Shown piece after piece: positions 7,875-59,700 of a stretch of 64,000 nucleotides of DNA; position 1 is the stretch's first letter; each line of letters begins with the position of its first letter. The position numbers and the translations under genes were made by a program. The notes beneath the pieces were generated by a model. It was not told the DNA's origin. It did no database searches and saw only the letters and a program-made list of their open reading frames with translations. Source of the stretch: Euglena gracilis (taxonomy: Eukaryota); NCBI GenBank assembly GCA_039621445.1, contig CP154954.1:8682634-8746633 (forward strand). Reading direction: 5' to 3'.

Positions 7875-10800
7875 TAGTGGGCCAGTCATGAAAGCAGCCT
7901 GCCTGGGACGGACAGTGCCACCGGGTCCACCGCGGCACCCCAGCACCGGGCACCGACGCACGTCCCGTAGTGACGTCGCCCGACTGAACCCGCGAAGTCG
8001 ATTCCATCTGTGTCGATTCTCTGTCCATCTCTGTCGATTCCTTCTGTGCGGTCCGTCTACTCCGTGTACATTGTACACACTGGCACCTGTTACCGAGCTT
8101 CTTGTCGCATCGGCCAAAGGGTGGAAAGGGGTCCAGCAAGCACTCTTGTTTTCCAGCCGCCAGTCTTATCCTAGTCTGCCTTGTGTGATCCAGGTTTTTA
8201 AGGAAGTGCGCACCCCCTGGTGGGGGTGCTATGGGCAGCAGGGGCACATTCGACCCCCCCCCCCGCTTCATAGCACACCCCCCAACGCCGAAGGCACCAG
8301 GACCTGAAAATGGTTATTTTCAGGGACATTTGTCTTGATCGGGCACTGGGCTAAAATCGATCCCCATGGGGGGGGGGTGCCTGCTATGGGCAGACACCCC
8401 ATACAAGGCACTCCCCCAGGGTTGGTTAAAAGAAGCCTGGTGGGATCCCCCCCCCAAGGGTCAATGGTATCGGCCCAAAAAAAAGTTCCGGCCGAAAATA
8501 TGCCGAAAGTGCGCGAAGTGCCAAAGAACTTTGGGGAAAGCGTCCAACAGAATCCAAGTCCTTGGGTGGGGTTGATTTTTGTTTTGGCGGAAGAGTTGCC
8601 GCCGGACTGGATTTGGGCTGCTGGTCCCAGCCCGGCCGGCGACCCCCCCCCTCGACCCAGCCCACGGACGTCCACCTGCATCCTTCCAGCCAGTCAATGC
8701 CCTCCGGCACTCCAACCCCGGCTTGTTTTGGGACAAAGTTTTGTCGGCCAACCCACTCCCCTGAAATCGAGATATTGTGTGCGCACATGCCCCCAGGGCA
8801 CTGTGACTCCAAGGTTTGATTTAGGGCGGCGTCCAGCTCCCACCCCACAGACCGGGGGCAGGGGTGCTCCTCTCCAAAATGAAACCCCCCAACATCAATT
8901 TCCTCCTTGCACCATTAGTGCACGGATCATTCCATCGTGGACAAAGTTTGCCCTCAAGAAAGTGCCAGTACGCTTGTTTTTGGCTGAATTGAGTGGGGAG
9001 GTTTGCTGGCCCTGCTGATTTGGCCATCGACCACTGTTCAGGTGTGTGTTCAGGTGCTCCCCCTTCCCTTGTCCCTGTCGAACCCCCCCCCCCCGCCATG
9101 CCAAACTGGGCTGAAGTCAAGTCAGGTGCACTCACCTGGGGGGGGGGCAAACATATTTTTGGCGACGAGAACGGAAGCTCCAGCTTCATAAGTCCGGACC
9201 GGCACTCCTTCTCCCCTGCACCCCATCCCTCCTTCCCTCCCCAGTGAGGCCTCCCCTTGTCCCCTTAGAGGACGTGGGTCGGAGTGCCCAACTCGGCATC
9301 CACACCAAACACGCCTGCAGAGCATCACCAGGCCATGTCCAACACATGCAGCTGTGATTCCTCGTAACATGATAGCGTTAAAAAAGTCTTCATAAGTTTA
9401 TTTATATTGGGCATCACACGCTACACTACGTGCGGAAACAACATCTAACAGCCGTCTTCCTTGTCTTGGACTGCAGTGTCTTCAACACGCCATTCCTGCA
9501 CCCCTGAAAAGCAGCTTTCTCCCCTCAGCCAAGCAGCCTTTTTTCTTGGACCCAATGAATTTTGGTCAATTTCTCATGAAAACCAAACCCCTCGGCAGGT
9601 GCCTGCTAGGGGCAGCAGTCCCTTGCGCCAGACACACCCCTGGGGAGGTTGTTAAAACAAAGCCTGGTCGCCCAGTTGTGGTGTGCTGTGCCGCGGCAAA
9701 AATTGGATTGTGCGCCGCGTGCGCCGCGGGAAAAAGATTTTTGCTCCGCAGCAAACTTCGCCGCGGTGCATTAAATGAAAGTCTGGTCGCATGGCCTCCG
9801 GGGCGTCCCCCTCCCCCCATTCACCACCCCTTGCGCCAAACCGATTGACACCCATTTTTGAGCAACCCCTGGTACTTTGCAGGAAGCCGGGGAAGCCCTC
9901 AAAACCAAGCAGCCAGGCAATCAGACCACCCGAGTTCAGGACTTTCATGTATTTGTCTGGTTCATGCCAAGCTGCTGGTGAGGTAAACACATTGTGCTCC
10001 AACGTGCACAACCTCCTTCTTCGTTGAAACAAAAGACACTTTTTTGTTGATTGGTTGACCTAAATGTGAGCCTGATCGATTATGGTGATTGATGATCATG
10101 CCCCCCCCCCCCCGCCGCGATGTTTGGCATACCTGGAAACTGTCAGGGTTCCCGGTATGTCAGCCAACGGTTTTCTTTACGGAGGGGGGGGGTCGTCGTT
10201 TGTGTGGTCAGCAGTTGCATGGGAGCCGTGCACCCCCCCCGCTGCCCTCGGCCTGCCCATCCCTAATCTATAGTGGTTGCCCCAGGGTACGATATAAGAG
10301 GAAGGTTCCATTGGGGGCTCCGGGTTCATCTCGGGTTCCCCTCGACCAAAGGAGAGGAGTCCAGAACCACCCAACAAGGAGTTCTGAACGTCCCAGCCCG
10401 ATAGGGCAGGGGGTCCCCACCCACTTAACAAGTGGTTGGGGACGTCCCAGGGTAATTAACTGATTTTTTCTTGTGACGGTACTACACATTACCAAGGCAT
10501 TACCTGGCTTTTTATTCAAGTGAGATGGTGTGCTGCCAAAACGCCTACTGTTTCAACGACAATACTTGAAAATGGCTGTGCCTCGGACGGTGGAGAATTG
10601 CTTTTTTTGGTGTTTTGAAAAAACTCTGCCCCCAAAAATAACGGTCTATTTCTCAGCCCAAATTTCTTCCTTTGCATCAAACGCCAAAAGAAGGTCACTT
10701 TTGGCCGCCCCACCCCACCCTTCCCTGGCCGCGTGGGGGGGGGGCAAAGTTAAAAAAAAACCCCGTTGGGCAACAAAGGACACCGAACTGAAATATTATG

Positions 10801-35043: not shown

Positions 35044-35077
<34 letters not shown>

Positions 35078-35335: not shown

Positions 35336-35369
<34 letters not shown>

Positions 35370-35451
35370 CATACATACATACGTACATACATACATACAT
35401 ACATACATACATACATACATACATACATACATACATACATACATACATACA

Positions 35452-35485
<34 letters not shown>

Positions 35486-38400
35486 CGTACGTACGTACGT
35501 ACGTACGTACATACATACATACATACATACATATATACATGCTTACATACATACATACATACATACAGAGATACATACATGCATACATGCATGCATACAT
35601 ACATACATACCGTGCTTTGTTTTTCTGAGCTAATTTTCAATAAATGTTGGTGCGGGGAGGCTGGGGAAAGGTGCCCCCCTGGCCATGGACCGCCCCCACC
35701 TCGCGCGACTGCGTGATCAGGACCTGGTCACTGTCAACATCGATGACAGCTTCGATGCCAAAGACCTGCTGGGCAACTACATTTGCGGTGATCCCAGTGG
35801 CCCTCACCCCCCATGTTTGTGGTAGATCTTCGTTGGTCGATGCACAAACATATAGAGAGAGATATGTTGGTGATGATGATGATTTACACCAATCTAGAAA
35901 AGAGAATGTGTCTTCATGTGTGGCATGAATGTGATGCTTGCAAATTTAAACTTTATTTCCACCTTGTCCGCAGCGGCACATGTTCAACGCGTCTGCATAC
36001 CTGCATTCATGTTTTTGGGTGGGTGTGTGGGTGGGGTGCATGTGTGTACAAATCCACTTGTGTGGAGTGTGCTCGCCATCTTCCATTTGTCATTCCCGGC
36101 CCCTGATGGGACACCCCGAGAGACGCTGGGCGGGCCGACACCCCCGGCACGTATGTGCTGCAGGCAGGGCCCCTCGCGACGGCGGTCCGCGCCGGGCGGT
36201 GGATCGTCATCGAGGACATCGACCTCGCCAGCTTCGACCTCCTCTCCGTCCTCATCTCCCTCATCGACACCGGCGCCCAGGGCCAGCCCATGCGGGCCAG
36301 TCCCCATAGCCCTGCCCCCCCCATCCAGATGCCTGCAAATAAAAAACGAAAGCAAATTCAAAAAAAATTCGCTTTCACACTCAATTTTTTTTGTTTTGGG
36401 TGTTCCCCCATTGTCTCGGTGGCCAGACACCTAGTCACCACACCTGGTGACGCATCACAATTTTGTTGGGGTGTTTTTTTGCTGCCGTTTGCAACTTTCA
36501 CCCGTTTCACCCCCGTGACAGTCACTCCTGAACGCCGCAGGCGAGGGGCGAGGGGTCTGCCCTGCGAGCAACCTCACCGTGCAGGACCGCGAGATCCCGG
36601 TCCGGCCAGGCTTCCGCCTCTTCGCCACGCAGGCGCTCGGCAGCAGCACCACCGCCACCATGAACCGCACCAAGGTCCCTACCCCATCCCTTGCCATCTC
36701 CCCAAGCTTCCTTTTCCGGCACAGGCGAGCGACAACATGCAACGTTATATATGATGCAGGGCGTTCCGTCTTCTCTTTTGGGCACCATTGTTAGTTGCTG
36801 GCTGTGTTTATTTTCTTATCTTTTCTTTGTCAAGGTCACGAACTCACACCGAAACCCTGCTCAATTTCGAACCTTGAGAGTTTGTCCACTGTTTTCCAGC
36901 CTTTTTTAACTTTTATTAAATTGAAAGTTGAAAGATGGAACTTTTGTTTGGAACTTCCATCTTTCTTCTGGATTTCACTGTTGGAATTGATTGTACAGTT
37001 TGGCGGCCCAAAACGGGGCGCTGGCGGGTCGAAAAACGCTCATTTTCGGCTCAAAAACAGTTTTTCCGGGTCCGGGAGACCGAAAAAACATCGTTTTGGG
37101 CAAAAAAAAATTTCGATTTTTTCGACTTTTTTGACCCGGTTTTGAGCGTTGATGGTTTTGATGGTGTGATGGTTTCGATTGTGCATTTTAATTGTCTTTA
37201 GCCAACGATCATTGTGCTGCTTTGTTCAGGTCCTTTCCTCTTTTAACAAATGGGGCCACAGTCGGGCTCTGGCATGGAGCCTTGTGCCGCAAAGTGATGT
37301 TGGCTTCACTGTGACGGATATTTATGTATTATTTTTTTAATTTTCGGTCTGCAGCCGTTTCAATGCATCCCCATCGCAGGTGATGGTTTGTCACCAATAT
37401 ACCGCTCTCAGTTTAGCTCAAGTGACACGCTGGGGTTGTATATGGTTATATATATACATATATATACATATATATACATATATACAAAGATATATATATA
37501 TATATATACATTTGATCATACATGTGGTTTATACATATGGTTATATATTTTATTTATTATTTATTTATATATTTTATTTATTATTTATTTATCATCATAT
37601 ATATGTATATACATAAACAGACACACACACACACACATATACATACATACACACACAAACACACACACACACACACACTTACATATTATACATATCATTG
37701 GAAACTTAAAAAAATTACAGGGAAGTGGGATATGGATCGAGCGCTTCGGGTAGTCAATGACCAAGACCTCCGGCTCCCCGAGGTCACGACCGGCGGCCAG
37801 GACCCGGAGTCGTCGTCATCTACAGCCTGTCGCTGGCGGAGATGGCGGCGGTGGTGGCGGTGCAAAACCCGGCCATCCCCCGCCGCTTCGTGTCCCACTT
37901 CCTCAACTCCCTCGCCCCGCCGCCCACGGTGCCGCGGGTGGCCGGCCACGTTTGGGGGGCCTGCGGGTGCTCGCCCATGCTTTTCTCGGTCGAGGATATA
38001 TATTCACCGTGCCACCCCCCGGAGGGTGTGATGCAAAACGGGGGTGCGGGGTGCAGGAGGGGGTCTCCCCCCACCTGGACCAGGAGGGGCGTTCCGGATT
38101 ACCTGCCTCGAGCCGAAAATTGGTCGTGCGGTGTCCCCAGTCCCCCCTCCCTGGTCCGACCCCCCATTTACCCTATATCAAGCCCTGCCCGGGATTGGAG
38201 ACCTGGGTGGGGGAGTTGGTGGTCCCTGTGGGGTGCTGAGAGGTCTTACAAAAAAAAGTTGCATGAAGTTGCCGGAAGAGTTGATAGAATTGATCCCCCC
38301 CCTGTCGATGGGTGGGTTCTGCCGACCCCCCCCCCCCAACGACAGCCAGAAACAGCCTTTCAGTGTCGGAAGCCCCCCCCATAGAGCTCTTGGCCTGGCT

Positions 38401-41400
38401 GCTGTTGGCCGATGTTGTCTGATCCTGTGGGCTGCGGCCCCCAACGAGCTGGCCGCCACGCAGCTTCGGTTCCGGCTGGCGCTGCGGGACGTGCTGAAGT
38501 GGGGGCGGCGCGTCGCACGCGCGATGCCCCGCATGCACTTCAACGAGACGGGCTCAGGCTTCTTTTTTTGTTTTTAACACAGAAGAACCCTGCCCTCCGG
38601 GGGGAGAGGTGGTGGCGGGTCCATGGTCGGAGGTCTGGGAATAGGTTTCGGGCAGAATTTTTTTGAGAATGTTCTTGTACCGTCTGAGTTTTGGGAGTCT
38701 TGTGCTGGGCCAAGTGTGGCTCCCCCACCTCCGGGGGGGTCTTAAACCAAAGCCTGGATGGGCTACATCCCCAACACGACGCGGGTCGCCCTCTTCGAGG
38801 AGACGGTGGACTCGTTCTGCTCGTGTCTTCCCCCACAGGAGTACCACGCCCTGGCGGCTGGATTTGCCGGCAAGCTGGAGGTGTTTGCTCGTTTGTTCAT
38901 TTGTTTGTTTGTTTCTCCCATTTTGCATACACACGGGTTTCTCTCTGTGGTGTGACGGCTGGGTGACCCCACAGAATAATTCCGTGCGAAAATGGTTGTC
39001 GTGGTTGCCTGCAGTCTGCATAATGTTATTTGTAATTTTGTGTTTGGTTTTTACTTCCATATGGATGTATTTGGTTTGCGTATATTTTATGTAGTTGCAA
39101 TCCAATTCTCATACCAAGATAATTTATCTTGTTTTAGTTTCTTAACCACCCATGCCTGTGCGCTTTAGCGCAACGTTTCTGACAATTTTGAGATCTGTTA
39201 AAGGTTACAGTGCGGACAAAAATTACGGGAAAAAATGACAGGGAAAAAAATACAGGAAAAGATTTTGGGACAATTTTTATTTTGGAAAAATTTTGTTTTG
39301 GGAAGATTTCTGTTTTATTCAGTATCAAAAAGCAATGGTGGCCAGTTGTGTGAAGTGATCCGGGACAGAATAAATTGTTTCCTCCCAGATTTTTTCCAAT
39401 GGAATCTTTGGCACTGCCACGTGCAATCCTCGATGAAGTCGAAGCATCTCAAGGACATCCACAAACTTGAGATGACAACTACACCAAGGTTGTTATGGAT
39501 TGGGCCCGGCAGTTTAGCATTTTATCCCATTCATTAGTTCTTTTCTTCGTCATCCACAACCATTCCCGAAAGATGTGCAGCAATGTGAGCATTTCTAGCC
39601 TGTGCTCAACCTGCCAATAACCGCTCTGTTGTCGGTAAGTTTGGAAAGTCTCACAAAAAAGCCTGACAGAAGTAATGCAGGCGACATTGCAGCCGGAAAC
39701 CCTCCATCCCTGTGAGTGTGGCGAGCACACCGCTCGAAAATGTGTGATCTGCAACTACCATGTGTGTGATGGCTGTTTCCCTGACCATTCATCTGTAGTT
39801 TGCCCTTCGTAGACCATGGACAGTGTCCATGTCCTTCGATGACGCTTCGCTTTGCCTTGGCTCAAAGGAAACATTACGGTGTAAAAATTTTTTAGGGCTT
39901 TCCCAAAATTTTCGTTCCCCGTAATTTTTGTCCGGGCTTTAATGGCAATGAAATCGAAATTTTTTGCATCTAATTATCCCTGATTGCCCTCTGTGAATAA
40001 ACAAGCAATCGCTTTTAGGGCAGAAGTGATGTTTAATTATTTAAACCCTCCCCCTGTTGAAGCAACCTTTTCTTTACATTTGGGTTTCACCCATTTCCCC
40101 AAGTGGTTGCTCAGACTTGGGTTTGGTTGGAAACGTTGAAGGCAGCTGAATTCGGACCAAACCGTTGGTAAAAAAAATAAGTTTCGTGTTCCAATGAAAG
40201 GGGGGGGGGTGTATTTTGTATTTAGTATTTTGCATATTTCAAAAAGTATGCCTTTCCATACCAGTCTCAAACGGTGATCATTGAAGACCAGGCATTCAAA
40301 ATTGTTCACCACACTGGCATTGCTTGCCAGTGTCAGTTCGTTTTAGTCTTTCACTGGCTGATTTGTGAGGTGACAGGTTCACGGAGGGTCAGGGGATGTG
40401 GGCTGGATATGAGGGGAGACAGGGAGCAAAGAAGACAAGCACCAAGCATACCACGTCTGAGCCGACCTGAATGCATGGACTCAAACATGTTTTAACGTGC
40501 ACTACCGATCCCAAAATCCTGCAACATCCCGATCCCACAGATCCCGGATGCCGCAGCACGAGAGTTTTTTCCGATCCTTTCCGACTTTTAGGGATGCAAA
40601 ACTGAGAGGCAGTCACGACGTGACGCGTGACCATGGCCCAGGTCTTTTGAAACAGCCGCAATGCAGCCCCCAAACATGATGGCCACACGCATCATGCGTG
40701 ATTTCCGCCACGACACCGGCCCCCAAAAAGCCCCAAAACGAAAGTCACACGCGTCACGTGTGACTTCCGCCGCAACACCCGCTCCCCCCAGGTCTCCTCC
40801 GACGCCCTGGTCTACTTCCTCACGCTGCGGAAGCCGCAGTTCCGCCTCACCGACGGCCAGGTCGAGGTGGGCCGCGCGGTGCTGCCCCGCCTCGCCGCCA
40901 GCCGCCCGGCGGGGACCCTCTTCGCCCCGACGCGGACGTGCCTGACCCTGATGGAGTCCATCATGGTGGCCGTCGGCGGCGGCGAGGCGCTGCTGCTGCG
41001 CAGGGCCCCCGCCGACGTCGGGCAAGCAAGTCGGATGCTCTTTCTTCCTCGACCGCTGGGGGGAGTGTTACTGTGACAGCCGTCCAACGGGGGGGTGTGC
41101 GTTTTTTGTCGATTGCGACAATTCTTGCCGAATCGAATTTTGGTTTTGCATTTTTTTGAATGTTGATTTCCTTCAAATTTTGGTGCCGCAGCCCTCGTTT
41201 GTCATTGGTGGCAGATGCTTCCACATACAGGGAAACCCACACAGACCAGGCAATATTTTTGAAGGCAAAAATGATCAAAACTAAGCTTTTTAAGGCGTTT
41301 TTGAGGTTTTTTTTTAAAGGTTTTTTAGGCATTTTCAAATTCTTAAGAAGTTATGCCTCACACAGACCAGTGCTGTGTTCTTGGTACAGCCTGTCCGCAT

Positions 41401-44400
41401 TTGAACGGCGTATTTTCTGAGATAAACACGTGCCAACGTCTGGGACGTGTGTCCACTTCACACAGGTCGCTGTATTTAAATAAAATTTGATTTGTACTCG
41501 GATTCATTTTTTTTTCACACGCTGCACCCGTGCTGGTCTCACTGGTGGCCCTGGGGCCGACCGGAGAGACAGGCATTGGCAAGACGTTCGTCATCCAGAG
41601 CGTGGCCACAATGGTGGGGGCGACCATGAACGTGCTCAACCTGAACCAGCAGTCCGGCTCCTCGGACTTCATGGGCGGCTTCCGGCCGCTCGACATCCAG
41701 CTGTTGGCCCGGCCGTGGGGGCGTGCCGGTGGGGGCTGTCGAATTACACACACATAGATGGGGATATAACACATGGTCTGTTTATCGTTTAATGAGAATC
41801 ACACAAAGACACCCAGAAGACCATTTTGTCCATATTTTGGAGTTTTAAGTTGTTTTTTTTGCCAGAAAAAAAAGTGCATTACAAGTGGGAAAAATCAACG
41901 TGCTCGAAGTTGATGGGGTTGTCTTTCTGAATGTCTCAGAAATGTCTGGAGGCTGCCAAACAGAATACACAAATGAAGGAAGCAGTGCCAATTATCCGGA
42001 AGAATACCAATTATATGGGTTTCAGCAGGAATGCATCCTTCCCACACAGCAATATTGTTTGCCTCTTCTATCATCTTTAAAGAGCTTGTGTTGATGTGGT
42101 GGATTGTTGGGCCGCGGTGAGAATTTGCCCACAAAAGAGCGAAAAAAAAGATGGTCGAAGAAAAGATTTTGGCAATGTTTCTGGTAGGTTCCCAGGTAAA
42201 ATTCTTAATCATTCAATCTGTTGCTGGCGGGCAATCTGAACAGTAATTCCTCTTAAATCCAGCAAGGATATTCCTGGTTGCTCTGAAAAGACCTTCAGTT
42301 GTCCAATCTTCAACACGTGCGAACAGCAAATTCTCGACAGCTTTGGGCTGGTCATTTTGGTGCTTCGATGCATGGATGCTCCCCCCACCTTGAGCTTGGT
42401 GCAGGGAAGGGAACTGCATGGTGTTGCAGGTATTGCATGGTGTTACACACACACGTTTTCAAAAAAGGGGGGGCAGTTATTCCCCGCCCAAGCCGAGAAT
42501 GGCAAGTCTTTGGGATCCCTGGTCTGTCAGGGGACAATAACTTCGTGGGGTAATTAGGTGGGTTTGATTTGATTTGATTTGATTTGATTTATTTTGAAAT
42601 TTAGTAATTTTGGTTTTGTCAGTTGGCGCCCCTCCCTCTGATCGACGCCGCCACGCGGCTGGCCACTCCTCCACCGCTGGCGGCAGCTCTTCGAGCAAGT
42701 GTTCAGCCTCGCCAAGAACGAGGCGGTGCTGACCTCCGCGGAGACGTTTTGCAGCGACCGCCGGTGGGCCTTGTTGGTGGAGCTCTCCCCACGCGGCTGC
42801 CTGCCTTGTCTGCCTAACTGAGCTCTGGCTATGCATTTGATTGGGCGTTGGCTCCCACGCACATTTGTGAATGTTTGTGCGCACAAACATCGTGCGTGTG
42901 TGTTTTTGATCACGTGTACAATTTCTTTTTGCATCTCGTCGAAGTATTGATTCTTTTCGGGTTTAGGTTCTGATCCAGCAAAGTATTGTTCTCATGTGGA
43001 TCGTTATCGTTGCATTGTGCAACCTTGGCGGAGATAATAAATATTTGCTGTTTTTTTTCCAGTTGAGGTCGATATTTTTTTTTGCTCTTCTGGCTCTGCT
43101 TTTCTTTAAAACTCTGTTGCTTTGCTTGAAAGCATTGCCAATACAGTACATTTTATCCGTTGATGTATTTTTTATGAGCATTACAGCTATTTTTATGTTT
43201 CACATTAATTTATTTTATTGCTTTTGAAGCCACGCAGCTGGGTGGCCGGGGCAGAGCAGCGCTGCCACCGCGCTGAAGAAGCTCCAAAAGCCGCCGCCGG
43301 ACGGTGAGGAGCCGGAGGGGAAGGTGCCGAAGCGGCTGAAGAAGAAGAAGAAGGTGAAGGGCAGCGAGGGAAAGGTGGCGGAGTGGTTGGCCTTCCAGGA
43401 GGTGGCTTGCCTTCCTCCTTCCTGGTTCTGAGTTTCATTAGTCCAACCTACCGACCTATTTGTGCGACATTCATGCAAACACAAGTTGCGAGCCCATAAC
43501 CATAGTCTCGGATGTACACATATGCACAAATGAACACATCCAACCACACACCCACACACCCACACACCCACACCCACAGCACACCCGCACACACAACACG
43601 CGCACGCGCGCACACACTACACACACTTACAACACACGCATATGCACACATACACACAATTCATCACCACCAGACACACACACACACACACACAAACACC
43701 CACACCCACACCCACACCCACCCACACACACAGACACACAAACACACACACACACACACACACAAACACCCACACCCACACACGCACAAACCCTTCCCCC
43801 CCACAGGCGGTGGCGGAGTTCGACCGCAAGCAGCAGGCGGCGGCGAGCAGCTTCATCTTCCAGTTCTTCGAGGGGCTGCTGGTCCAGGCCTGGCGGCAGG
43901 GCTCGTGGCTGCTGCTGGACGAGATCAACCTCGCGGGCAGCAGCACTCTGGAGCGCCTCAGCGCCGCACTGGAGCCCAGCACCGGGTGGCCCTGTGTGTG
44001 TGTGTGTGTGTGTGCATGTGTATGTATGTGTATGTGTGTATGTGTGTATGTATGTGAATTTTTTTTGTATGTGTGTGTATGTATGTATGTTTGTATGTAT
44101 GTATGTGTGTGTGCGTGTGTATGTATGTATGTGTGTGTGAGCGTGTGTATGTATGTATGTATGTTGTGTGTATGTGTGTATATGTATTTATGTGTGTGTA
44201 TGTGTTGTGTGTGTATGTGTGTATGTGTGTGTGGTGTGTATGTGTGTATTTGTGTGTGCCGGTTTTCGGAGGCTAGAATGTGGCCTGGGGATTGGCTTGA
44301 CCCTGATGACTTGTGACCCCCAACCCCCATGGCTGCTGTACCTTGTCAAACATCAGCTCCGCAGAGTTTTCATGTTCATTCCGTTCAACGCTGTGCATTA

Positions 44401-45831: not shown

Positions 45832-46509
45832 CGCGCACGTGTGTGTGCGCGCGCACCTTGCAGGGATATATCTCCTTTTTTCTGCTGGCCAAGGTGACAG
45901 TGTGCAGTTTGTGGTGTAACAAGCTGGCGATTTTAGGCATTGCGTGCTTCTGCAGAATGTAGCCAGGGCATCACATTTACCTCTCAACGCCTCTCCGGGA
46001 ACCCGTCTCCTCTGCCAATCTTGTCGTCATGGCTGCCAACCATTTGCTCCCCGGCTTCCAGGCCAGCGCAACGCAGCTCACCGATGGCAACCCGTCCAAC
46101 CCCAAACCCCACTACACCCTGCGAACCCTCAGCGCCTCCCAGGCTGGTGTGGCATTGCCGCACTGGTTTCTGAAGCATTGATTTGCTTGGGGTTTGGACC
46201 GTGGCCAGAGTCGCCACTGCTGGGGATAGAAGGCACGTGGCATCATATATTAATATTTTGTTTACAGTTTACTCACTTGTCATTTCTGGCTTTCCATCAT
46301 CTCACCTCAACTGTCTGGGGTTGAGTTGGAGGAGCTTGCCCAAAATTGGATTGCAGATTAGTGCCCAAATAAGTGTCACCCCTGAGGGTCCAAAGCTTCG
46401 GTCTGATAATGTGCACACCCTGTGCACTTAAATGGGGGGTCATGGTCCCCAGTCAGGTCCCTCCACACACACACACACACACACAACACAGCACACAACA
46501 CACAACACA

Positions 46510-46540
<31 letters not shown>

Positions 46541-49500
46541 TATACACACACAACACACACACCAGCCTGCCGCCGCCCTGAATTTTACCCGGCTGGCCAT
46601 CGGGGTGTACGGCTTCCACGCCGCGCTGCAGGAGGGCATCCGCATGGCGTTTGGCACTCAGATCGCCCGCAAGTACCACCCGGTGTTGGAGGGGCTGACC
46701 GGGACTGGCCCGACTGTGATGCCGAGGCCAAAGTCATACACCGGAAGCAACGCGCTGGGATTAAATTTGTAAACAAAGCAAAGGAAAGGGGGATAAAAAA
46801 TGGCCAAGAAACAGAATGTGTCAAAGTTGGGTGGTCTGAATCAGAGGCTGGATAGTTTTTTGATCAAAAATCCCAAAAGGATGATGGATTTCGGGTTTTT
46901 TTTTAGAATGCCATTATATTTTTTTGGGGGATTGCAACAGGAAGGTAATAGGATAGGAAGATAATCCGAGAGGTTTTGGGAAGTATGCCAGACAAGCACC
47001 GCCCAGACGAGGGAGGTCAGCCTGTTGTGGAAATGGAAAGTGTTCTTTCCGCTCTGTGGCGGGGGAAGCGCCACAGTGACGGGTCCCGCGGGAGATCCGG
47101 AAGCACATTGTCAAGAACCCTCAGGCTCCTCCAGACTGCTCCCTGGCGCAGCCCTTCTGCCTGTCTTTCTTCCAATTTCACAGTGGGTTATTATGTTATT
47201 GCTACGCAACTATTTTGATTTTTAATTTCTTTGGGTGTGAATCTGGGATCAAAAAAACATTTCCCATAAATGGCCGACTATTTTATTAATTCTTCATGCA
47301 TTGTTTTCAAGCAATCGTAAAATATTTCTTGACTGATGAGTAAATGGATCGATGATGAGTGCCACGCGTCTGCTATGTTTTCCCCGATTGTTGTGCATTT
47401 TTGTCCTCCGTGCTCGGGGCTCTCTATTCATGTCTCCAAATATGGCAAAAAATCGATGCTTCCAAAATATCTCGGAAATGAAGAAAAATCAAAGAAAATG
47501 TCTGGAGACCTAAATAGAAACCCTTGGAACGCCCTATGTAACGTATTTTGATTTCCCCGTAACTCCCCGCCGAGCCCGAGATATGACCGCTCAAAACGGT
47601 ACGGGGCGGTGTGCTCACCCCCCCCCCCGGGACAGGCTGAGCGCAGCCCATCGCGGTGCCCAAGGCCCCCGGCCCCAACTTCATCGCATTCGAGCATATC
47701 TGGCTGGAGAAGGGGCCCCTCGAGGCGACCGTCAACACGAAGTACATCCTGACCCCCTCCGTGAAGGTCCGCGCGGCGCAGCATCGGCTGCATGTTTGGG
47801 AACAACTTTTTGGAGAATGCAGTTCTGGAGCACGTACCTACCCCCCCCCCCGGGAAATTGTTCTCCCCAGGGAACTGTCACCGAAGCCCAGTACTCGCTG
47901 ACCTGTCCTCATATGTTTCTGTGCTCGCTGACCTGACAGGTGACCGTTTCCTGGGGGGGGTAATGGTTGTCCTTTGGGCCCATGGAGGCCACATAACCGA
48001 AGCAAAATATAGATCCTGCCACAATGGCATGACTGTGTTGACTGAAGGTTGGTTTTAGGAAAATATCTAACATTTTTTATCCAGCATTAACTCAAAAATG
48101 AGTGATATTTGGTGTGATTGATACCGTTATGTGACGTAATAAGGGTTCAAGTCCTTTCTACCCCCCCCCCCGGGAAACTGTCATGCCCAAGAACCTGTCA
48201 GGGTTCCGCCCGGGAAGCTGAGGGTCCCTGGTACTGGTCAGTTCATCAGAAAAGGTAGTTGTCCGGGTCCCAGATACCGACCAATTTGTCAGGGTTTAAA
48301 ATTTTGCATTATTCGTTCACATTCGTGTGATCTACCTCCAAGGTTGTGAGTCTTGATCAAATTTGTGGCTATGTGTCCCATATCTTGTCATATGGCATGC
48401 CAAGTTCCCGAATTTTTGAGGGCCCGCCCGGGAACTGTCAAGGGCCATGCCCAAGAACCTGTCAGCGTCCCGCCTGGGAAACTGTCGGGTCCCTGGGACT
48501 GGCCAACCTGTCAGGTGACAGTTTCCCGGGGGTAGGTAATATTTTTTACCAATTTCGATTTTTGGTCATTTTAATTTTATAATAATATAATTAATTAATA
48601 TTAATATAACAATATAATTAATCACAATTCAGACCGTGGGTAGTCCGGTGCAAGCCTCCGGCCACTTCGCCCCCCGGATGCAGCGCCGGGGGCACCTCAC
48701 CAACCTGGCGCGGATCGTGATGGCGAAGCGGCCCGTGCTGCTGCAGGGGCCCACGTCCTCCGGCAAGACCAGCATGGTGGAGTACCTCGCCCAGCGCACG
48801 GGGCATCGCTTCGTCCGCATCAACAACCACCACAACACCGCCCGCCCCGGCCCTCAGCATCTGGGCCAGACCTGCCCCCCCCCCCCTGTCATTTTAGGAC
48901 CGTTCCAGTTCCAGATGACCGGCCACCTTGGAGTGCCGGCCTGGCAGTTGTCACCCAGGTTTGGACTCGCTGATTTGTCGGGTAACAATTCCTCGGGGGG
49001 GGGGGCGTTACCAACCTTGGCTGGCCGGTGCCAAAAGCACCTCCGTGATGTTCTTCTTCTCCTGGCCCATATTGATTGCCGTCCATACGCCGTCAAGCTC
49101 GCTCCGGCGCTAATTGGGTGTGCCGGGCCGAGATTCTGGCGTGAGTGCCGGAGGTGCAGCCTGACCTGCAGGAGTATTTCGGGACGTACATCAGTGACAA
49201 GCGGGGCAAGCTGTACTTCCAAGAGGGTATCCTGGTGGAGGCTTGCCGCAACGGGTACTGAACAGGCCGGGGCATCGGCGACGGCCTGATTCAGAGTGTG
49301 AGCTCCACACATCTTTATCCACGTTTCGTCATTTAATATACATATTATACATCCATATTATTAATTAGTACTATTAAAACAATATGCATGTGTGTATTAA
49401 TTTAATGTATTATGTATTAAACCTCTTCCACTGGCTGTTTTTTCGAATTGGGTTCCCAAGTATCGCACCTGGCGTCAACAAATGGGGCAAAGGCACAAAG

Positions 49501-52500
49501 GCACAGTGGCTTGAGAAGCATTTTATGGCGCAGAGGGGGGGGGAGTGTATGCTTGCCTGGGTTGTGGGACCCCAGGACACAATGTGACCAGCCGTCGCGG
49601 AGTTGGTCGAACTCAGCCTCTTGAAAGGTTTTCGCTGCTGCATTCGTACAGGGGGGAATGCATTTCGCATTTTTTTTCGCATTTTTTTTGTGTTTTTGCT
49701 CATTTTTGCGCTTTTTGCGTATTCTTTGCACATATTTTGGGCTTTTTTTTTCGCGGCCGGGTTAGCACATCCCCCCCTGACTTATGCAAAACGGCTTGGG
49801 AACCAGGATGACTTTTTTGGCGCAGAGGGGGGGGGAGTGTATTGTGGAAACCAGGACACAGTTTGACCAGACGTCGCAGGGTTGGTCGAATTCAGCCTGT
49901 TGAAAGGTTTTCGCTGCTGCATTCGCAGGGGGGGGGGGGATGCATTTTGTATTTTGCTTTTTTTTTGCATTTTTGTGCTTGTTTGCATTTTTTTTTGCAC
50001 ATGTTTTGCGCATTTTTTTTCTGGGGCCGGGCGACATTAGCAGACGGCTCGCAGTGGACATCCCCAACCCCGAGCCCCGCCTGCCCTCGGGTGGTGCTTG
50101 ACGAGCTCAACTTGGCCCCCTCAGAGATCCTCGAGGCGTTGAACCGGCTGTTGGACGACAACCGTGAACTGGTCATCCCCGAGACGCAGGCGGTGATCAA
50201 ACCACGCCCCCCGGTGCCCCTTTGATAGTGATGGTGCCCCGTGTAATGTCGTGCTGTATTCCAATGTAACAACTGAAGTGGGGTGTATTGGCCTGGATGG
50301 GGAAATCTTAGTTTGCAATTTCCGGTTTGTAATGTGGGTTGGTGATTTGGAGATGGGTCGGTGCGGCAGCCACTTTTTAGCCCCCCCCCCTTGCAGTTGG
50401 TGGACGTCACAGTGGTTGGCATTTCAGTAATATTATTTCATTCAAATGCTATTAAATTATTATTATTGTTATTTTCAAACTTTATTTATTTCAAATGTCC
50501 CGCCTGTTCAAAACACAACGTGTCGGTGGCATATCACATGCCCTGTGTTTTAACCCCAGAGCATTGCCTTGGGAAGGCGTGAGAGAGGAGCGGCATTGGC
50601 CACTTGGGGCGCCGGGGCCCACACCCCCACTTCCACCTCTTTGCGACACAGAACCCGCCGATGCTCTATGGCGGCCGCAAGGTGCTGTCCCGCGCGTTCC
50701 GCAACCGCTTCGTGGAGCTGCAGGTGGACGACATCCCCCACGAGGAGCTGCACGCCATCCTGGAGGAGCGCTACCGCCTCCCCGCCCGGCCATGCCCACC
50801 CTGTTTCTCGGCCAAAAAGCAAGTGTGACAGCATGAGAAAGCTGTTTCGGATTAGTGAACAAGCAAACCAAAAGTCTTGGTTTCAAATGAAATTTGCAAT
50901 GGATCATTTATATGGAAAAAACGAATGTGCATAGGTGTATGTGTGGGTGTGCACAGATATACACCATTTGCACATTCCAAAAACATGATCTTTGAATGCT
51001 CTTGTGGTGTATGAACGGAAACAAGTGGCATCATAATGGCGGCCCACGTCCGACTCTCCTGCCGCGAAAATTTTCCCATTTTCCTATTCCCGTTTCCTGA
51101 CAAGAAAAAAGCAGAAGTTGCGGAGAGAAGGTGGGGAGGCCGTGGCCAAGAGCTGGGTCAGCAAGATGATCCGGGTGATGGTGCACCTCCAGGTGCTGCG
51201 GCAGAACAGCCAGCTGTTCGCCGGCAAGCATGGCTTCATCACCCCGCGCGACCTGTTCAAGTGGGCCAGCCGCGGCCTCGGTTTCGCCCACCGGTTTGCT
51301 CCCAAAAAAGCAAGTAAGTCATTTCATCCCGAAATCAGCCTCCTGATTGAAGAAGACATTATTGAAACACACCGCCATCCATCTGTATATGAATTATCCG
51401 TGGGTATGCATCCACATCTGCAATAATCACGAAGGGTGCACTTTCGTGAAGGGTGGGGGCAGAATCAGGCAATGCCAAATGAATCAAATACTTGATGGAA
51501 ATGGGCATGCCAGAGGTTTCACAGCAGACCGACATGCCCCACAGCAAACACATATTATCATATTCATATTAATATTGGTATATATACGTATGTGCATGTG
51601 CATATGTGTGTGTTTGTGTGTATATGTATATATGTATGGCAGCTGCCTGCTACTCCCCCCCCCCCAGGGGGGAGCATGCTAAAACCCGGGTCCGACTTTG
51701 GGGGAAAGTCGGGGTTATTGTTTGGGATAGGGTTAAGGTTACGACCGGTATCCCGTCGGGCCCCCCTTTTCAAGAGTTTAGGGAGAAGTCAGGCCGCATT
51801 CGGGCAACGTTTAGGCAAAACGGGTTCCCAAAAATCTTCCCAAAGGGGAATCTACCTTTCGGCCTAGTTGCCCCCCCCCCAAATATAAAAACCCCCCGGT
51901 TTTATATTTGGGCGGAAATTTCAAGACCCCGAGGGGGGTTTTATATTGGGGGGGGTTATATTCGGTCGGAAAAATCAACTTCCTGGCAGGATCCAGTAGT
52001 CACTTTTTCGGTCCAAAATCACAAATACGCCCACCCTTGGGGTCCAAAAATTTCAGTTTTCAGGCAAAGGAGCAATTTTCACATGTTCTTGGTAAAAAGT
52101 GCACCCAAATCTGCCAAAAATCACAATTTCGGGAGAGATTTTGTCGAAAAATTTTCCTTCCGGTGCTTTGCGCCGGAGGGGGGGGGGTTATATTCGGGCG
52201 GGATTTCAAGGTCCTCAGGGAGGGTTTTATATTTGGAGGGGGGGGTTTGTATTTGGGGGGGGTTATATTTGGGGGGGGGTTACCCATTTTCATTATGCCA
52301 ATCCTAACCCTATTCTTAAAATTGCGCACGCATTCTCCCTGGATCGGCCAACGGTTTGCCTGAAAACGTCGTGTTTCCCGGGCGAAACGGACCGAAAAAA
52401 ATACGAGAAGTCGGACGTGGGTGTCACCCCCCCCCCCTGATTACTACTCGCTGTCCCGGGGGCAAGCAGTAGGTAGCTGCCATATGCATATGTATTTTTG

Positions 52501-55500
52501 TGTGTACATGCATGTATGTATATACACAGCATACACGCTATATGTATGTGTGAGTGTTTGCACATTGTATATGTTTTATGCACATGGACATGTCTTTTTT
52601 GTATGGTTTCGTGTAAATACTCCAGATCGCAAGGAGCAAGCGGGTGCCCCCATCGAGGACCTCGCCCACCACGGCTTCATGCTGCTCGGCGAGCGGTGCC
52701 GGCGGCCGGAGGAGCGGGCGGTGGTGCGCCAGACGCTGGAGAAGGAGTGCGGCGTCGTGATCGACGAGGCGCGGCTGTACGACTGCTTCGCCAACCCGAC
52801 GCTGAAGCCGCTGCTGGACCGCATGGCGGCCGTGAAGGACACACAGGGCGGCCCCCGGGCGATGGGGGGCCCAGCCCGCGCGTCGGGACAAACGTCCTGC
52901 CGTTTCTCTGAGGCCGTCCGCTTGAAGCGCCAACCGGCTGGCTGTCAGGTGGGAGAGTGAAGTTGAAAGGCCTCCATGGGGGACAGATGGCGTAGAGTAG
53001 AGTACCCCACAGTGCTCCACAGTACTTCACAGTATTCCACAACACCCCCCACCCCCCCACAGACACATACCCCCCACAGACCCCACACTTAAGTGCGGGG
53101 GCTCCGTTTTATATCATATGTGCCCCGGGAGGCTGACATCTCCGATTATCCCGGCTGATTTGGGGGGTATTCTCCACCCACGGCGGCAACAGCATGCTCT
53201 CCACCTGGGAACTCAATTCCGGCTTGGCCACTCCTGTGGTGACTTGGGGTTGAGCGTGCCGCTCTGCCGGCCGACAGCTCACTGAACGCCCTGGTGTGGA
53301 CCCACAGCCTGAAGCGGCTCTTCTCCCTCGTCGGGTGGTGCATGCACTTCGACGAGCCGTTCGTGCTGGTCGGGGACACGGGCGGCGGCAAGACCACCAT
53401 CTGCCAGCTGTACGCCGCCCTGACCGGACAGCAGCTGTCCATCCAGGCTTCTTTTTAAGTCACCTGACCCCCCCCCCCCCCCCCCCGGGGGGGGGGGTGG
53501 GTCCGGGCCGGACTCCCCGGGGGGGGGGGTCCCGCGCCGGAGGCGCCGGGTATACCTTTTTGCCGCGAAGCGCCGAAATTTTTTGAAAATTGCCTTTAGC
53601 GGGCCCGATTTTGGGGGGGTCCCCGCCCCCCCCCCCCTGGGGGGTTCCCGCGCCACCCTGGTTGGGTGGGGGGGGCCCCCCCCTCCCCCCCGGGGGTCTT
53701 AAAAAGAAGCCTGTGTCCATCGTCAACTGCCACCAGCACAGCGAGAGCTCCAGGGACGGCGGTGTGGAGCCCCCAAACTTGGTGATGCGAGCCCCCCCCC
53801 CCCAAACTCTGGCCCAGTCTACTGCATGGATCAGATAGTCCGGATATTAAATATTTTTCAAAAGAGTAATTAAAAGGGAAAAAAAAGAAATAAAATCAAA
53901 ATATATGAACGTTTAATAAAATTGTAAATCATAAATTGTAAATAAACATAAACAAATTTAAGTATATAAATAATTCAAATAATTATAAATTCTGAAAAAA
54001 ATATAAACCTGAGTGTAATATAAATCAAAGATGTTTTTGATCTCTACCAATGGGAAACGGTCCATCAGGCATGCGTCCATTTGTCAGGACTGGCTGGCCA
54101 CCCGGCCAACGTCAGGGCCGGGCCACACCGCCGTGGGGCCGACTTCCTCGGGAGCCTACGGCCCGCCTCAGCAGAACTGGCGGCCCAGGGCAAACTGTTC
54201 GCATGGGCGGACGGCCCGCTGGTGACCGCCGTCCGGGGCGTGCCTTCTTCGGCTGCCAAATTTTGCCCATCAAGAGAGATGTATTTGAAATCGCGCTTTT
54301 TGCATAAAATATTTTGCCCTGGAAAAATTTTTTGTAGTTGGTCGCCAGGCCTGGGGTCTTTGATATTTTCACCCTGTTAAAAGGCAGCTTTGCAGAGGAG
54401 TGAATTTTTTCCGAGTTTGTTATTGTCATTTCAGCTTCCATCGTGGCCGACAGTCAAGAGGAATCAATTCTGGAAGGAGGTTTGGTGGACGAGGGTGAAG
54501 TACCCCCTGAAGAAGAAGAAGAAGAAGAAGAAGAAGAAGAAGAAGAAGAAGAGGAAGACTCACCTCAAAAGAAGAGGAAGTTCCATTATGGAGCGAAGTC
54601 AACTCCAAGCTCCCGTACATATTCCGGCTCCAAAAAACGTGTGGAAAAACGTGGGTGGAGCCAGAATATGCTGCCGTTGCAAGCAATTCCCATTTGGTAC
54701 ATTTGAAGTCCGGGGTGAGTCAATGTGGTGTGTGGCTTGCCTGAAGCTTGCTTAGACTGAACGTGCAGGTGCCATCCATGTCGATTTTCAACGCTTCAGT
54801 GTTTGCCATTGTCTTCCAGGAGGTCGTCTTTGTGAATCATTGACAGGTACACCGGCATTGTCACATGTTTTCGGATTTTGGGCAGCAAAACTCTGTTATA
54901 TTCCTGCATTTTCTCAGGGGTTTTATGCAAGTTGCATTTTTTTGCATTTTTTTTGCATTTTTTTTGCATTTTTTTTGCTTTTTTTTTGACTTGCATAATT
55001 TGAAGGGCCAAGTTGCATATCCTCCCCCTAGACCATGACACCGCAATGGCGAGACGTCGCCCTGGGGCCATGAAGCAGGGGTACCACTTCATGCTCGACG
55101 AGGTCAACCTCGCGGAGGACTCTGTCCTGGAGCGGCTGAACTCCGTCTTCGAGAGCGGCCGCACCTTGACCCTCCCTACCCAGCCCCAGCCGGAAGCGAA
55201 AGCCATCTCGATCACTCTTCTCCGTTCAAGAGAGGAGGTGTGGTGGCCCCCTTCATCGATGTCTCTTTCATCCAAATATATACCGACGTATCTGGGCACA
55301 AACAAACAAGCTTTATCCAAATGGCATCAAATCAAGGCTGGCGTCCACGTCCGTGAGGGCCGAAAACCTACGCCGGGACAAAACAGATTTGCAGTCAGAA
55401 TTCCTCCTCTCCTGCCCTCCCCACCCCCGTGAACCTGCCCTACCTGGTAACCTGCAGGGCCGTACACCAAACTGTCAGAGTCCCTCCCTGTCCTGGGCCA

Positions 55501-56624
55501 ACCTTTCATCACGCGAAGTTTTTTTTTCACGTGAATTTTCTTCACGCGAATTTTTTCTCATGCAATATTTTTTTCACCCAAAATTTTTTTTTCACGCGAA
55601 GATTTTTTTTTTTAGGTCCCCGGTATTGACCAGAAGAAGAGGCAGCACAACCGGGACTTGGGCTGCCCCCGAGAAGGGCAGCCGCAAGGTGCAGGAGCTG
55701 ACGGCGCACCCCGCGTTCCGTGTGATGGCCACCATGAACCCCGGCGGCGACTTCGGCAAGAAGGAGCTGTCCCCCGCGCTGCGGAACCGGCTGACGGAGA
55801 TCTACGTCCCATCCTCGCTGTGGCCTCTTTGCAGCACTCGGGTCCGAGAGAAGAGGACCCCACATAACTCGAAATGTTCGGGTAATGATTGGTGGAAATC
55901 ACCAGCTCACCAATGCAACGTGAAAGGTGCGCAGGGGGGGGATTGATGTCCGCAATTTTTTCCGCAATTCCCACAATTTTCCGCAGTTTTCCGCAATTTT
56001 TTCCCTTTCCAAAATTTTCCCATGAGCCTGAGATGGAAGAAGGCAAAATGAGTTTCAGCCATTCCTTGAACCTTTCACAAGCGAACCCAGGTGCTTTTTT
56101 TCATTGTTTTTTTGCAAGTTTGCCAAATTTTAAAATTTTTGACAAAATTTGGCAATTTCTGGGCCTTTTAGGGTTTCTGCCTGATTTTTGCTGGAAATAA
56201 TTTCGACTGAGAAAAATTTCGCATCCTGGACCAGATTTTACCGGATACCAAAGTTTTTGGTCTATTTTTGGATTTTTGACCCAAGAAATTCCGTATTTCC
56301 AATGCTTTTGGACCTTTTTGTTGCAAAAAAAAAAATGTGCGCAATGGCTCAAAATTTACACCTATATTGCAAAATGACCGAATTTGTAACCTTTTTCTAG
56401 TCCCCTCCAGTGGAAATGTGTACATTCCCGTTATCAATTTTTCCACAATTTTTCCGCAATTTTCCGCAATTTTCCACAATTTCGCAGGCCTCCAAGATCA
56501 ATTTCTCCCCTGGGTGCGTCCAGGATTTTCCCCCCAGTTTGTCCGAGAACAGTTTACAGCTGCACATGTTCCCATTCACGCGCCGGGCCCACCCCCCCCA
56601 CACCCCCCCCCCCACACACACACC

Positions 56625-56717
<93 letters not shown>

Positions 56718-59700
56718 CACAACACAAACACACACACACACACACACACACACAGGGGAGGGGCTCATGGAAAGGGGTCATTCCCTGATGGGCAGCCCGG
56801 AGGACCTGCGGGTCATCTTGGAGACGAAGCTTGGGGCCCGCCCAGAGTTCCTCCCGGTGCTGCTGGATTTCATTGCATTCTTCATGCAGTCGGAGTCGAA
56901 GGGCAAACGGGCAGCCGGGGTCGGATTGTGTCTGGGTGTTGCAGGGTGGGACAAGTCCATTCCAAGTCATGTTCCAGAAACATGGGAATGGGTGTCCAGC
57001 CATCCAGCACGTTTTTTTCCCACGACCAGCCTTTTGCAGCAGGACCCGCGGGACCCCCCGGGGTCTTTGAGAAACACCTTTGGTGACTTCGCAGTATGCC
57101 CGAGCTGGGTTCGTCAGCAGATACGAAATGGTATTCCAATTCAGTTGGGTGATCCGTCCTGTGCAGTTTGTGCGGGTTCCTTTCAAGTTCGTGTGGTTCG
57201 CCTGCATCCCCACCCACGCACGCACGGGCTTGCACGCACGCACGGCGCACGGCACGGCGCACGGCACGGCGTACGGCACGGCATACGGCACGGCGTACGG
57301 CACGGCATATGGCACGGTGTGTGGCACGGCGCACGGCGCGCGCACCCACGCACGGGCGCGCGCCTGCACGCCTGCCCCCGGCACCCCGGCTGGGGGTGCC
57401 CCCTCAGTGTCCGGGACGTGGTGGGCTGGATCGAGTTCATCGACCGCGGCGCCGCGGTGGGCCTCTCCCCGGCGCAGGCGGTGGTCCAGGGCTGCGACAC
57501 CGTTATCCTGGGCGGCGTGGGCATCGGCACTGGCATGGCCAGGGAGGAGTGAGTCCTGGCCGACCCCCACCCCGGGGGTCGTCATGCCGAGAACCTGGCC
57601 GGATGCCGCCCATGAGGTGGTCAGGGTCTTCTGGCGTTGCCCAACCCGTTTTCCGTGAAATCATTTGGGAACATGCCAGGGTCCTTGGTGCCGGACAACC
57701 TGTGGAATTCTGCAAGCATCATTTCCATCATTTCCAGATCACAAGAGTGTGAAAGGTTGATTTTGCAGGTTTTTGCGTCGGCTGGGAGTCAAAAACGTCA
57801 ACGTTTCCTGCTGACCCGGAACCCCCTCCCGCCCACTTGAAACTGCCTCCTGCATCTGCACTCACTGGCTGGTCCTCATTGGGTTTTGCCCCCCCTCTCT
57901 CTGTGCTGACTGGAGGCAGTTTTCCGGGAGGAGGTACAAACCAGAGGACAAATTTATTTTGTTTATTAAATATTAATTATTTATATATTTGTTTTTTTTA
58001 ATAATCATATTCTAATTTACGTTAATTATATTTTCATTATTTATTTTTCTATTATTATTTTCTGCTTCATTAAAATATAATATATTATATACTTATTATT
58101 TATTAATATACATTTTTATTTATGAAAAATATTAATTTGTTTTAACAAGATTTATTGTGGTTTGAAGTCCACCCACCTCCCCAACAGCCCAACCCCACCG
58201 TCTCATTCCGCCCTGCACATGGCCCCGGAGGCAGCGGCGGCTCTCCGCCAGGACTGCCTGGGGCATCTGTGCCGGCTGCTGGCGGGCGCCGGCCACCCCA
58301 CCCGGGCCTTGTTTCTGTGCGACCCTCCGACCACCCCAGCACACATAAACATACAAATGCACAAATAAAAATGCTAATGCACACATAAACATACAAATGC
58401 ACACATAAAAATACAAATGCACACATAAAAATACAAATTCACACATAAAAACATACAAATGCACACATAAACATACAAATGCGCACATAAACATACAAAT
58501 GCACACCTAAAAATGCAAATGCACACCTAAAAATAAAATTGCACACATAAACATACTGCAAATAATAATCCCCATATAACCCTCCTTGATTTGGGGTGTC
58601 TAAATAATTTGCCGAGGGTTATTATTTTTATTTCTGAGGTGCTCGAGGGGGGTAATATGGACAGTCAGGCGATTGCAGGGGGCCAGACACCCTCCCACAC
58701 CCACACCCAACACCCACACAAACACAAACACAAACACCCACACCCACCCACAACCACCACCTATTTGTCATCCTGTGTCCAAACGTCTCCTTGGGGTGGT
58801 GCCATAATCAGAGGCCCGTTGCCATCACGGAGGCGGAGGCGCAGCGGTACTTCTGGGAGGTCAGCACCTCCCCCGCCCCAACGTTGCCCGAGGAGCTGCG
58901 GCGGCACTACTCCTTCGAGTGCGAGACGAGTGGGGCGGGGTGGCTGGCTTCACTGGCGGTGGAGCCCCCCTGTTCTCAAATGAGTGAAACAGAAGAAATC
59001 TGGAAGTATTTTCGCTCCTCACTTTTGGTTTGCACGGCTTCAAATGTTGTGTGTGTGTGTGTGTGTATTATCAGATTAATCATGTTGGTATTTAAGTCAT
59101 CAAATATTGTATTAAAAATGCATATTATAATTCATATAATTTCAATTTTTTGTATTTATACATGTTTTAAAAATATCTAAAACAAGTACAAGATTGAAAT
59201 TGTTAAATTAATGGCGACGTTCAAGAGGGGGCGACCATGACCGCCACGCTTCCCCACCGCCCAACGAAGCTCAACCTCTCCAAGATCGTCCGCGCGCTGG
59301 CGCTGCCCAAGCCCTTGCTGCTGGAGGGCAGCCCTGGTGTGGGCAAGACCACGCTGGTGGAGGCGCTCGGCCCGGCCCGCCCCAGCCCACCAGCCAGCCG
59401 AGTGGGTCACAAAAAACTAAACCCTAATTGTAATTAATAATAATAATAGTAATAATAATAGGGTTTTAAATAAATAAAATAGGGTTTAGTTTTTAATTTA
59501 ATAATAGTAGTTTTTAATAATAGTAATTATTATTATTATTTGAGCTAAGTTTAATAGCTAATCTAATAGAGCTGCGGGTCCAAATAGTGCTGCACCCCCC
59601 AAACATAGCTATGCGAAGTGTGTGGTAGCTGGTGCAGTCTACTGCAGGCATCTTTTGTAACCCGCAGAGAGGGGAAAGGGGGGCGAATTTCCACCCGAAC

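Follow-up and report, generated by a model that had tools for sequence, protein, structure and literature searches.

The nonconventional introns of euglenids, as portrayed in PMC12501133, PMC3935182 and PMC4770533, have borders other than GT/AG, a CAG at +4 to +6 that pairs with a CTG at -8 to -6, spacers of 3 and 5 nucleotides (nt), a purine opening the exon, a terminal stem, junctions that direct repeats render 'slidable', and a pyrimidine|purine step at both borders. Knock-in mutagenesis in Euglena has given an experimentally derived code for them, 5'-N3-CDG...CH'G-N5-6|R, and in that account the 5' spacer is strictly 3 nt, the 3' spacer is 5 (+1) nt, a purine is preferred as the first exon base, point mutations in CAG or CTG abolish nonconventional splicing, and synthetic introns of 50 bp that combine the code features with a 12-bp complementary stem are spliced (PMC12501133). 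The same 2025 paper calls the origin of these introns 'unclear'; an origin from MITEs (miniature inverted-repeat transposable elements) was proposed in 2013 (PMC3935182), and work from 2024-2025 again treats it as likely or plausible (PMC11282704, PMC12621601, PMC12501133). Once excised, nonconventional introns are reported to occur as circles (cited in PMC11282704). Here we describe a 270-bp MITE in a 64,000-nt stretch of Euglena gracilis contig CP154954.1 (hereafter the window, for the whole of the stretch analysed), lying within a coding exon of the gene for midasin (MDN1/Rea1). The element is very probably a recent, still polymorphic insertion, and its ends and its target-site duplication together spell out the euglenid code, suggesting that it would be removed from the transcript as a nonconventional intron.

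Compared with the nonconventional introns described in the passages cited above, this locus has all of the shared features and differs in two respects: the sequence is an intact member of a multi-copy family with terminal inverted repeats (TIRs) and a target-site duplication, present in one sample and absent from another, and the direct repeat, a complete 8-bp duplication, is as long as the two spacers combined. A nonconventional intron reported in 2016, intron 4 of gapC in E. agilis ACOI 323, is strain-specific and has direct repeats of eight nucleotides (PMC4770533). Like the element here, it is found in one strain while others of the species are without it, and its 8-nt repeats lie at the junctions, but the description published there shows no repeat family and discusses double-strand-break repair, whereas the TIRs, the 8-bp duplication and the further copies found here point to transposition. 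The introners of Micromonas, Aureococcus, Symbiodinium and Polarella are also MITE-like, use part of the duplication and restore the frame, and some Polarella classes make 8-nt duplications too; they differ in offering the spliceosome GY-AG sites, of which the element holds one and the duplication the other (bioRxiv 10.1101/2020.10.14.339549). At the present locus a GY...AG border pair occurs in 0 of the 9 exact-excision registers, and the only in-frame GC-AG pair would leave 15 nt behind, and removal, unlike that of introners, would have to take the euglenid nonconventional route. The introner elements of the dinoflagellate Amoebophrya (PMC7789003) resemble the element in their non-canonical borders, in inverted repeats that join the ends, and in direct repeats overlapping the junctions; they differ in having direct repeats of 3-5 nt and no family-specific TIR, against 8 bp and a CAG/CTG code here. 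A reading of the locus as a dinoflagellate introner was considered and discarded, the intron borders seen in the spliced mRNA contig described below being other than GY-AG and fitting the Euglena code.

The element has the anatomy of a non-autonomous DNA transposon. Its left TIR (53444-53459) and the segment 53698-53713 are exact reverse complements of each other (16/16), and the flanking duplication TGTCCATC is identical on the two sides (8/8, 100%), in agreement with an earlier reading of the locus made from the sequence alone (the sequence-only reading), which had reported a 270-bp element with a perfect 16-bp TIR and a perfect target-site duplication. By hand arithmetic, a perfect 16+8 match is expected by chance about 1e-6 times over all pairs up to 3 kb apart. 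The TIR 16-mer, with at most 3 mismatches allowed, has 7 matches in the window against 0.44 expected, a number reached by 0 of 100 shuffles. When CAG...CTG elements were sought over the whole window under strict conditions (10/12 or more for the TIR, 7/8 or more for the 8-bp duplication), the 53444-53713 element alone came up, with control counts of 1, 0, 0, 0 and 0 at five offsets and 0 on the reversed sequence. The predicted fold of the element is unusually stable (-184.2 kcal/mol, z -3.8, none of 200 shuffles as stable) and pairs the two TIRs in both the minimum free-energy and the centroid structures, while the spacers stay unpaired. Together with one copy of the duplication the element adds 278 nt, which is no multiple of 3, and its insertion therefore breaks the frame: read-through in the frame of the host gene gives ...QQLSIQASF and meets a stop after 5 codons.

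An empty counterpart of the site is present in genomic DNA. In the DNA run X13, contig record 6 is 769 nt long with a depth of 28.2, against 28.8-40 for neighbouring single-copy contigs; it covers 53282-53435 and continues directly with 53714-54325, holding a single TGTCCATC and no element. Because this contig keeps the AT-rich downstream intron, it represents genomic DNA with an empty site, and the insertion is therefore polymorphic. The eight pieces aligned from seven listed X13 contigs have 13 differences from the window in ~3760 positions, and X13, which carries the same organism label, is therefore another strain or haplotype that departs slightly from the window. That both the TIR and the duplication are perfect is in keeping with a recent insertion, the older copies of the family having 11/16 with 7/8 and 8/16 with 7/8. 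The sequence-only reading had called the event a very recent gain and had named beforehand, as its check, an empty site with one copy of the duplication, which is what the X13 contig contains. Of the two findings that would have spoken against it, retention of the element in mature mRNA was not seen, and an ancient position occupied by single-copy sequence was not borne out, the element being multi-copy and the site empty in a conspecific sample.

The host gene is midasin. One exon of the window matches 1088 representatives at E <=0.001, most of them about 5000 amino acids (aa) long, and tblastn with P0008, the best of eight representatives, gives collinear matches across 36.1-62.6 kb. A 226-aa open reading frame (ORF) of a relative, P0001, which is 75-77% identical to the window, carries the homologues of three of its exons without interruption (window 51146-53443), so that the relative lacks two of the window's introns. 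This fragment contains the Midasin AAA-lid domain (PF17867, 34.6 bits against a cut-off of 22.7), matches midasin chains of the PDB at E 1e-35 and aligns to residues 1207-1342 of yeast midasin 6i27, the fourth P-loop listed there, and it is on the strength of this alignment that the interrupted module is assigned to D4, the module named by the sequence-only reading. The insertion point lies directly past the D4 Walker A helix, between QQLS and IVNCH, as the sequence-only reading had placed it. Upstream of it, the exon 53272-53440 is matched by the piece 53272-53435 of an mRNA contig (X16, record 8) with 0 other letters, has weak AAA_5/AAA_7 matches and aligns by tblastn to residues 1414-1467 of P0008; the short exon downstream, 53719-53751, is drawn from the translation, the alignment of orthologues and an X16 joint ('side 36'). 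When 53441-53718 is removed, the sequence reads ...TGQQLSIVNCHQHSESS (the restored stretch also being written ...TGQQLSIVNCHQH...), and in a blastp comparison with 40 representatives longer than 4000 aa this stretch aligns without a gap in 14/14 midasin orthologues, the best 14 of the 40. The proposal that this cut restores a conserved motif thus held.

The fit of the element to the euglenid code is exact. The 8-bp duplication creates nine equivalent registers in which the element and one copy of the duplication can be excised precisely, and the code is found in one of them, 53441-53718, which reads ATC-CAG...CTG-TGTCC|A and in which the first base of the downstream exon is the purine A at 53719. 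It is the very cut (C|A...C|A, CAG at +4, CTG at -8) that had been put forward from the sequence alone, and it is the sole register of the nine that fits. In this register the left TIR opens with the CAG and the right TIR closes with the CTG, the TIRs give a stem of 16 bp (16/16 complementary), and the duplication supplies the spacers, the 5' one from its final 3 bases and the 3' one from its initial 5. Since 3+5 equals the 8 bp of the duplication, excision by the code would take out the element together with a single copy of the duplication; in other words, a CAG...CTG transposon with an 8-bp duplication would be excised exactly, whatever its target and in either orientation.

The explanation that we favour builds on this correspondence. 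A non-autonomous DNA transposon of a multi-copy family would have inserted very recently into the midasin D4 exon, in the strand that follows the Walker A helix, and the insertion would still be polymorphic. Such an element would arrive ready-made as a euglenid nonconventional intron and would hence be tolerated: its TIR termini would supply the essential CAG and CTG, the TIRs the adjoining base-paired stem, and the nonconventional machinery would cut 3 nt before the CAG and 5 nt after the CTG, taking out the element and one duplication copy (53441-53718) and restoring ...QQLS|IVNCH... We put the probability of this explanation as a whole, including removal as a nonconventional intron, at about 0.72.

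The window holds further members of the family. Three copies were counted in its 64 kb, of which the second, 38555-38756, aligns over its full length to the 53444-53713 copy and has a TIR of 11/16 and a duplication of 7/8. This older copy also lies within the coding sequence of midasin. Its predicted intron, 38552-38761, has a sole fitting register, GCT-CAG...CTG-GATGG|G, and its exact excision gives ...NETGYIPN..., which aligns ungapped to P0052 over the junction. The third copy, 8191-8439, has a TIR of 8/16, and its flanks look non-coding. Beyond the window, 29 X13 contigs run past the right end of the element at 53713 into unlike flanks, which together with the three window copies shows the sequence to be multi-copy. 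The word depth of X13 over the element reaches 99,121 and 20,164 in two bins, against ~30-50 for single-copy sequence, an excess of hundreds-fold to thousands-fold, figures that mean only 'many copies' because homopolymer words inflate the depth.

Coordinates of the MITE insertion, its parts, the related copies and the adjoining exons (positions of the window)
Feature	Position (strand)	Description
MITE	53444..53713 (+)	270 bp; without coding capacity; long C-runs and G-runs, AT-richer core
Left terminal inverted repeat	53444..53459 (+)	CAGGCTTCTTTTTAAG; initial CAG is +4..+6 of the predicted intron
Right terminal inverted repeat	53698..53713 (+)	final CTG is -8..-6 of the predicted intron
Upstream target-site duplication copy	53436..53443 (+)	TGTCCATC; 5 nt close the upstream exon, then ATC forms the 5' spacer
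Downstream target-site duplication copy	53714..53721 (+)	TGTCCATC; TGTCC forms the 3' spacer, then ATC opens the downstream exon (purine first)
Predicted nonconventional intron	53441..53718 (+)	278 nt; N3-CAG...CTG-N5|A; sole fitting register of 9
Upstream midasin exon	53272..53440 (+)	D4 Walker A region ...GDTGGGKTT...QQLS
Short downstream exon	53719..53751 (+)	IVNCHQHSESS; 3' end approximate (53749-53751)
Older family copy	38555..38756 (+)	202 bp; duplication GACGGGCT/GATGGGCT at 38547-38554 and 38757-38764
Third, degraded family copy	8191..8439 (+)	249 bp; duplication GTGTGATC/GTGGGATC, 7/8

Transcript evidence comes from record 8 of X16, a spliced mRNA contig of 5354 nt (depth 34.9, 0 other letters in the listed pieces), whose exons are 47644-47769, 48693-48839, 50619-50781, 51146-51284, 52651-52839, 53272-53435 joined to 53714 onwards, and 55671-55817. 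The midasin intron borders defined by this contig are not GT/GC-AG, and three of the four fully defined neighbouring introns fit N3-C[AG]G...C[CT]G-N5/6|purine after the sliding that their direct repeats allow, an intron type that by itself points to a euglenid-type host; among the sequences compared, no named euglenid one was matched. At the insertion itself, the joint from 53435 to 53714 ('skips 278, both 8') is the same in the mRNA contig of X16 and in the DNA contig of X13, and because an empty DNA allele exists, the mRNA junction cannot be assigned to the filled allele. The sequence-only reading of the element as an intron is supported, as a strong prediction: the code fit and the exact mRNA junction speak for it, and the junction is equally explained by the empty allele.

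Several observations weigh against removal of the element by splicing, or against its recency. The X16 junction may simply be transcribed from an empty site, and the assembled strain may itself carry an empty allele as well. No spliced read or contig traceable to the filled allele is present in X16, X21 or X22; the raw RNA runs X21 and X22 cover the midasin exons at 0-1.8x, and their reads on the element are low-complexity poly-C/G sequence with 'goes back' joints and poly-C loose ends. The neighbouring intron 51285-52650, which is 1.4 kb long and rich in high-copy repeats, fits the code in no register, and for the next intron, which starts at about 53750 and has approximate borders, no fitting register was found; with these two misfits the code is not universal at this locus. 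Lastly, the similarity of P0001 ends right after ...SEVS, the codon that matches ...QQLS|, and this break may mean that the relative has an intron within a codon of the site, whether the site attracts insertions as a hot spot, gained an intron in parallel or has held one for longer. Word-index searches for the relative's DNA gave P0001 alone, a query with the next exon gave nothing, and a metagenome scan with P0001 found no relative. A second metagenome scan, with the window exon, returned 11 loci of 47-87% identity over short stretches, none of them euglenid-like, and these were left unused.

Separately, RNA reads of X21 and X22 pile up to ~19x at 53468-53640, on the C/G runs; they have the look of low-complexity or multi-copy sequence and are unlike transcripts of the locus.

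The most serious competitor, though an unlikely one, accepts the insertion as real and recent but holds that it is removed poorly or not at all. The filled midasin allele, null or hypomorphic, would then be sheltered because the culture is polyploid, heterozygous or mixed and also contains empty alleles, from which the exact-junction mRNA would come. The empty DNA allele of X13, the identical X16 junction, the stop that read-through meets after 5 codons, and the lack of any transcript tied to the filled allele are all compatible with such a state, and the long C/G homopolymer hairpins might hinder processing. It is opposed by the presence in the element of every feature that the experiments described in PMC12501133 found sufficient for nonconventional splicing, and by the older copy in the coding sequence of the same gene and in the same register, from which it can be argued that the family is routinely spliced. 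Midasin is an essential protein. Given the exact code fit, the older in-exon copy and this essentiality, splicing of filled-allele transcripts at 53441-53718 is a strong prediction.

A more improbable history would make the intron position old, with a precise intron loss in X13 and a pristine appearance kept up by selection, which would act on the stem formed by the TIRs and on those halves of the duplication that are coding. The point at which P0001 stops matching, after ...SEVS, would suit it. The 16/16 TIR and the 8/8 duplication argue otherwise, since the latter includes the 3+5 intronic bases that would be free to drift and since the older copies show 11/16 and 7/8; the tail of P0001 is unlike the read-through of the element (IQASF and stop), and X13 retains the adjacent downstream intron, so that a loss mediated by cDNA is unlikely. 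We give very little credence to the idea that the conventional spliceosome uses a GC...AG pair inside the TIRs (53447-53709), leaving 15 nt and adding five residues (QPVSI), even though the symmetric TIR contains CAG|GC and AAG|CC in either orientation and the residual 3+4+8 nt would keep the frame. The exact 278-nt skip is the only mRNA junction seen, with no 263-nt skip among the better-supported joints, to which a further 243 of lower support would be added; the extra residues would fall in the segment that is ungapped in the best 14/14 orthologues; and the sites are without the C-rich polypyrimidine tract that PMC11170887 describes for conventional introns of Euglena. Equally far-fetched is an assembly artefact by which the midasin locus would have received a wrongly joined repeat copy: the element has many copies and is rich in homopolymers, and it is the assembly that places it here, but a perfect 8-bp duplication of the empty-site sequence is a signature of transposition and not of mis-assembly. 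Insertion of a MITE followed by its removal as a nonconventional intron accordingly remains the reading that we prefer.

As to which transposon superfamily mobilized the element, hAT transposons have the terminal consensus YARNG and an 8-bp duplication, and the terminus CAGGC agrees with YARNG at 4/5 positions; the duplication length agrees as well. Merlin elements have duplications of 8-9 bp and a conserved terminal 5'-GG, and E. gracilis is reported to have Merlin transposons with 8-bp duplications and transposases with an intact DDE motif (PMC8101967). Both groups thus share the 8-bp duplication and the short TIRs with the element, which in its duplication length fits Merlin but begins with CA in place of GG. 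The window has 163 ORFs of 110 aa or more, and the 55 of them in 1-30.5 kb gave 0 Pfam hits and hence no transposase; Rfam returned 0 families in the window, and a search of viral contigs for the TIR-gap-TIR pattern, made with a viral vector in mind, gave 0 matches.

Looser scans of the window for TIRs and duplications turned up 10 candidates of the CAG...CTG kind, where six offset controls had 3-7, and 5 of the CGG...CCG kind, where the controls had 3-6, an enrichment too unconvincing for any general claim to be drawn from the window. At three older introns the 3+5 register shows identities of 4/8, 3/8 and 3/8, against ~2/8 by chance, in a sample that is too small. Three further CAG...CTG pairs, at 46140-46569, 12774-12966 and 3150-3571, have terminal complementarities of 12/12, 11/12 and 9/12 and flank matches of 6-7/8, and may be older transposon-derived introns of other families.

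Other repeats occupy much of the window. Satellite arrays lie at 14700-27500 and 30100-35900; in one the unit is 18 nt long (CAAGATGCAGATGCTGGA-like) and strongly skewed in G and A, and the other is rich in ATAC/ACCT with a periodicity of ~350 nt. Weak midasin matches at 29572-29676 (E 0.015-0.03) and 35652-35801 suggest that the second array sits in a midasin intron. The segments 47269-47602, 47937-48604, 51611-52278, 54283-55284 and 56287-56600 have X13 word depths of 38,000-143,000, against ~30-50 for single-copy sequence, and are further short repeats of very high copy number that lie within midasin introns, in many cases with G- or C-runs. Long CA/TG microsatellites are found in midasin introns as well (43545-43788, 43993-44258, 56613-56754 and others), matching the tandem repeats that PMC11170887 describes for Euglena introns.

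The origin and the removal of euglenid nonconventional introns are long-standing questions, and in our searches of the literature this locus is the clearest case for an origin from MITEs. What the locus adds is the identity of the family, the polymorphism in an essential gene and the arithmetic by which 3+5 gives 8. The link between the spacers and the duplication was not found stated in the main-text passages searched; it would explain the odd 3/5 spacer rule in a simple, structural way. With alleles of an essential gene that occur naturally both with and without the element, the locus makes the MITE hypothesis directly testable and would also be a place to look for the excision machinery. 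More tentatively, and with odds that we would set slightly below even, the nonconventional splicing code may be an RNA-level 'undo' of one kind of transposon insertion. If so, CAG and CTG would be the termini of the TIRs, the stem would be the TIRs themselves and the spacers would sum to the 8-bp duplication; such insertions, in any exon and in either orientation, would be erased exactly from the mRNA; and most nonconventional introns, which make up >70% of the introns of E. agilis, would be decayed copies of MITEs with 8-bp duplications like the one described here, and the family would still be active.

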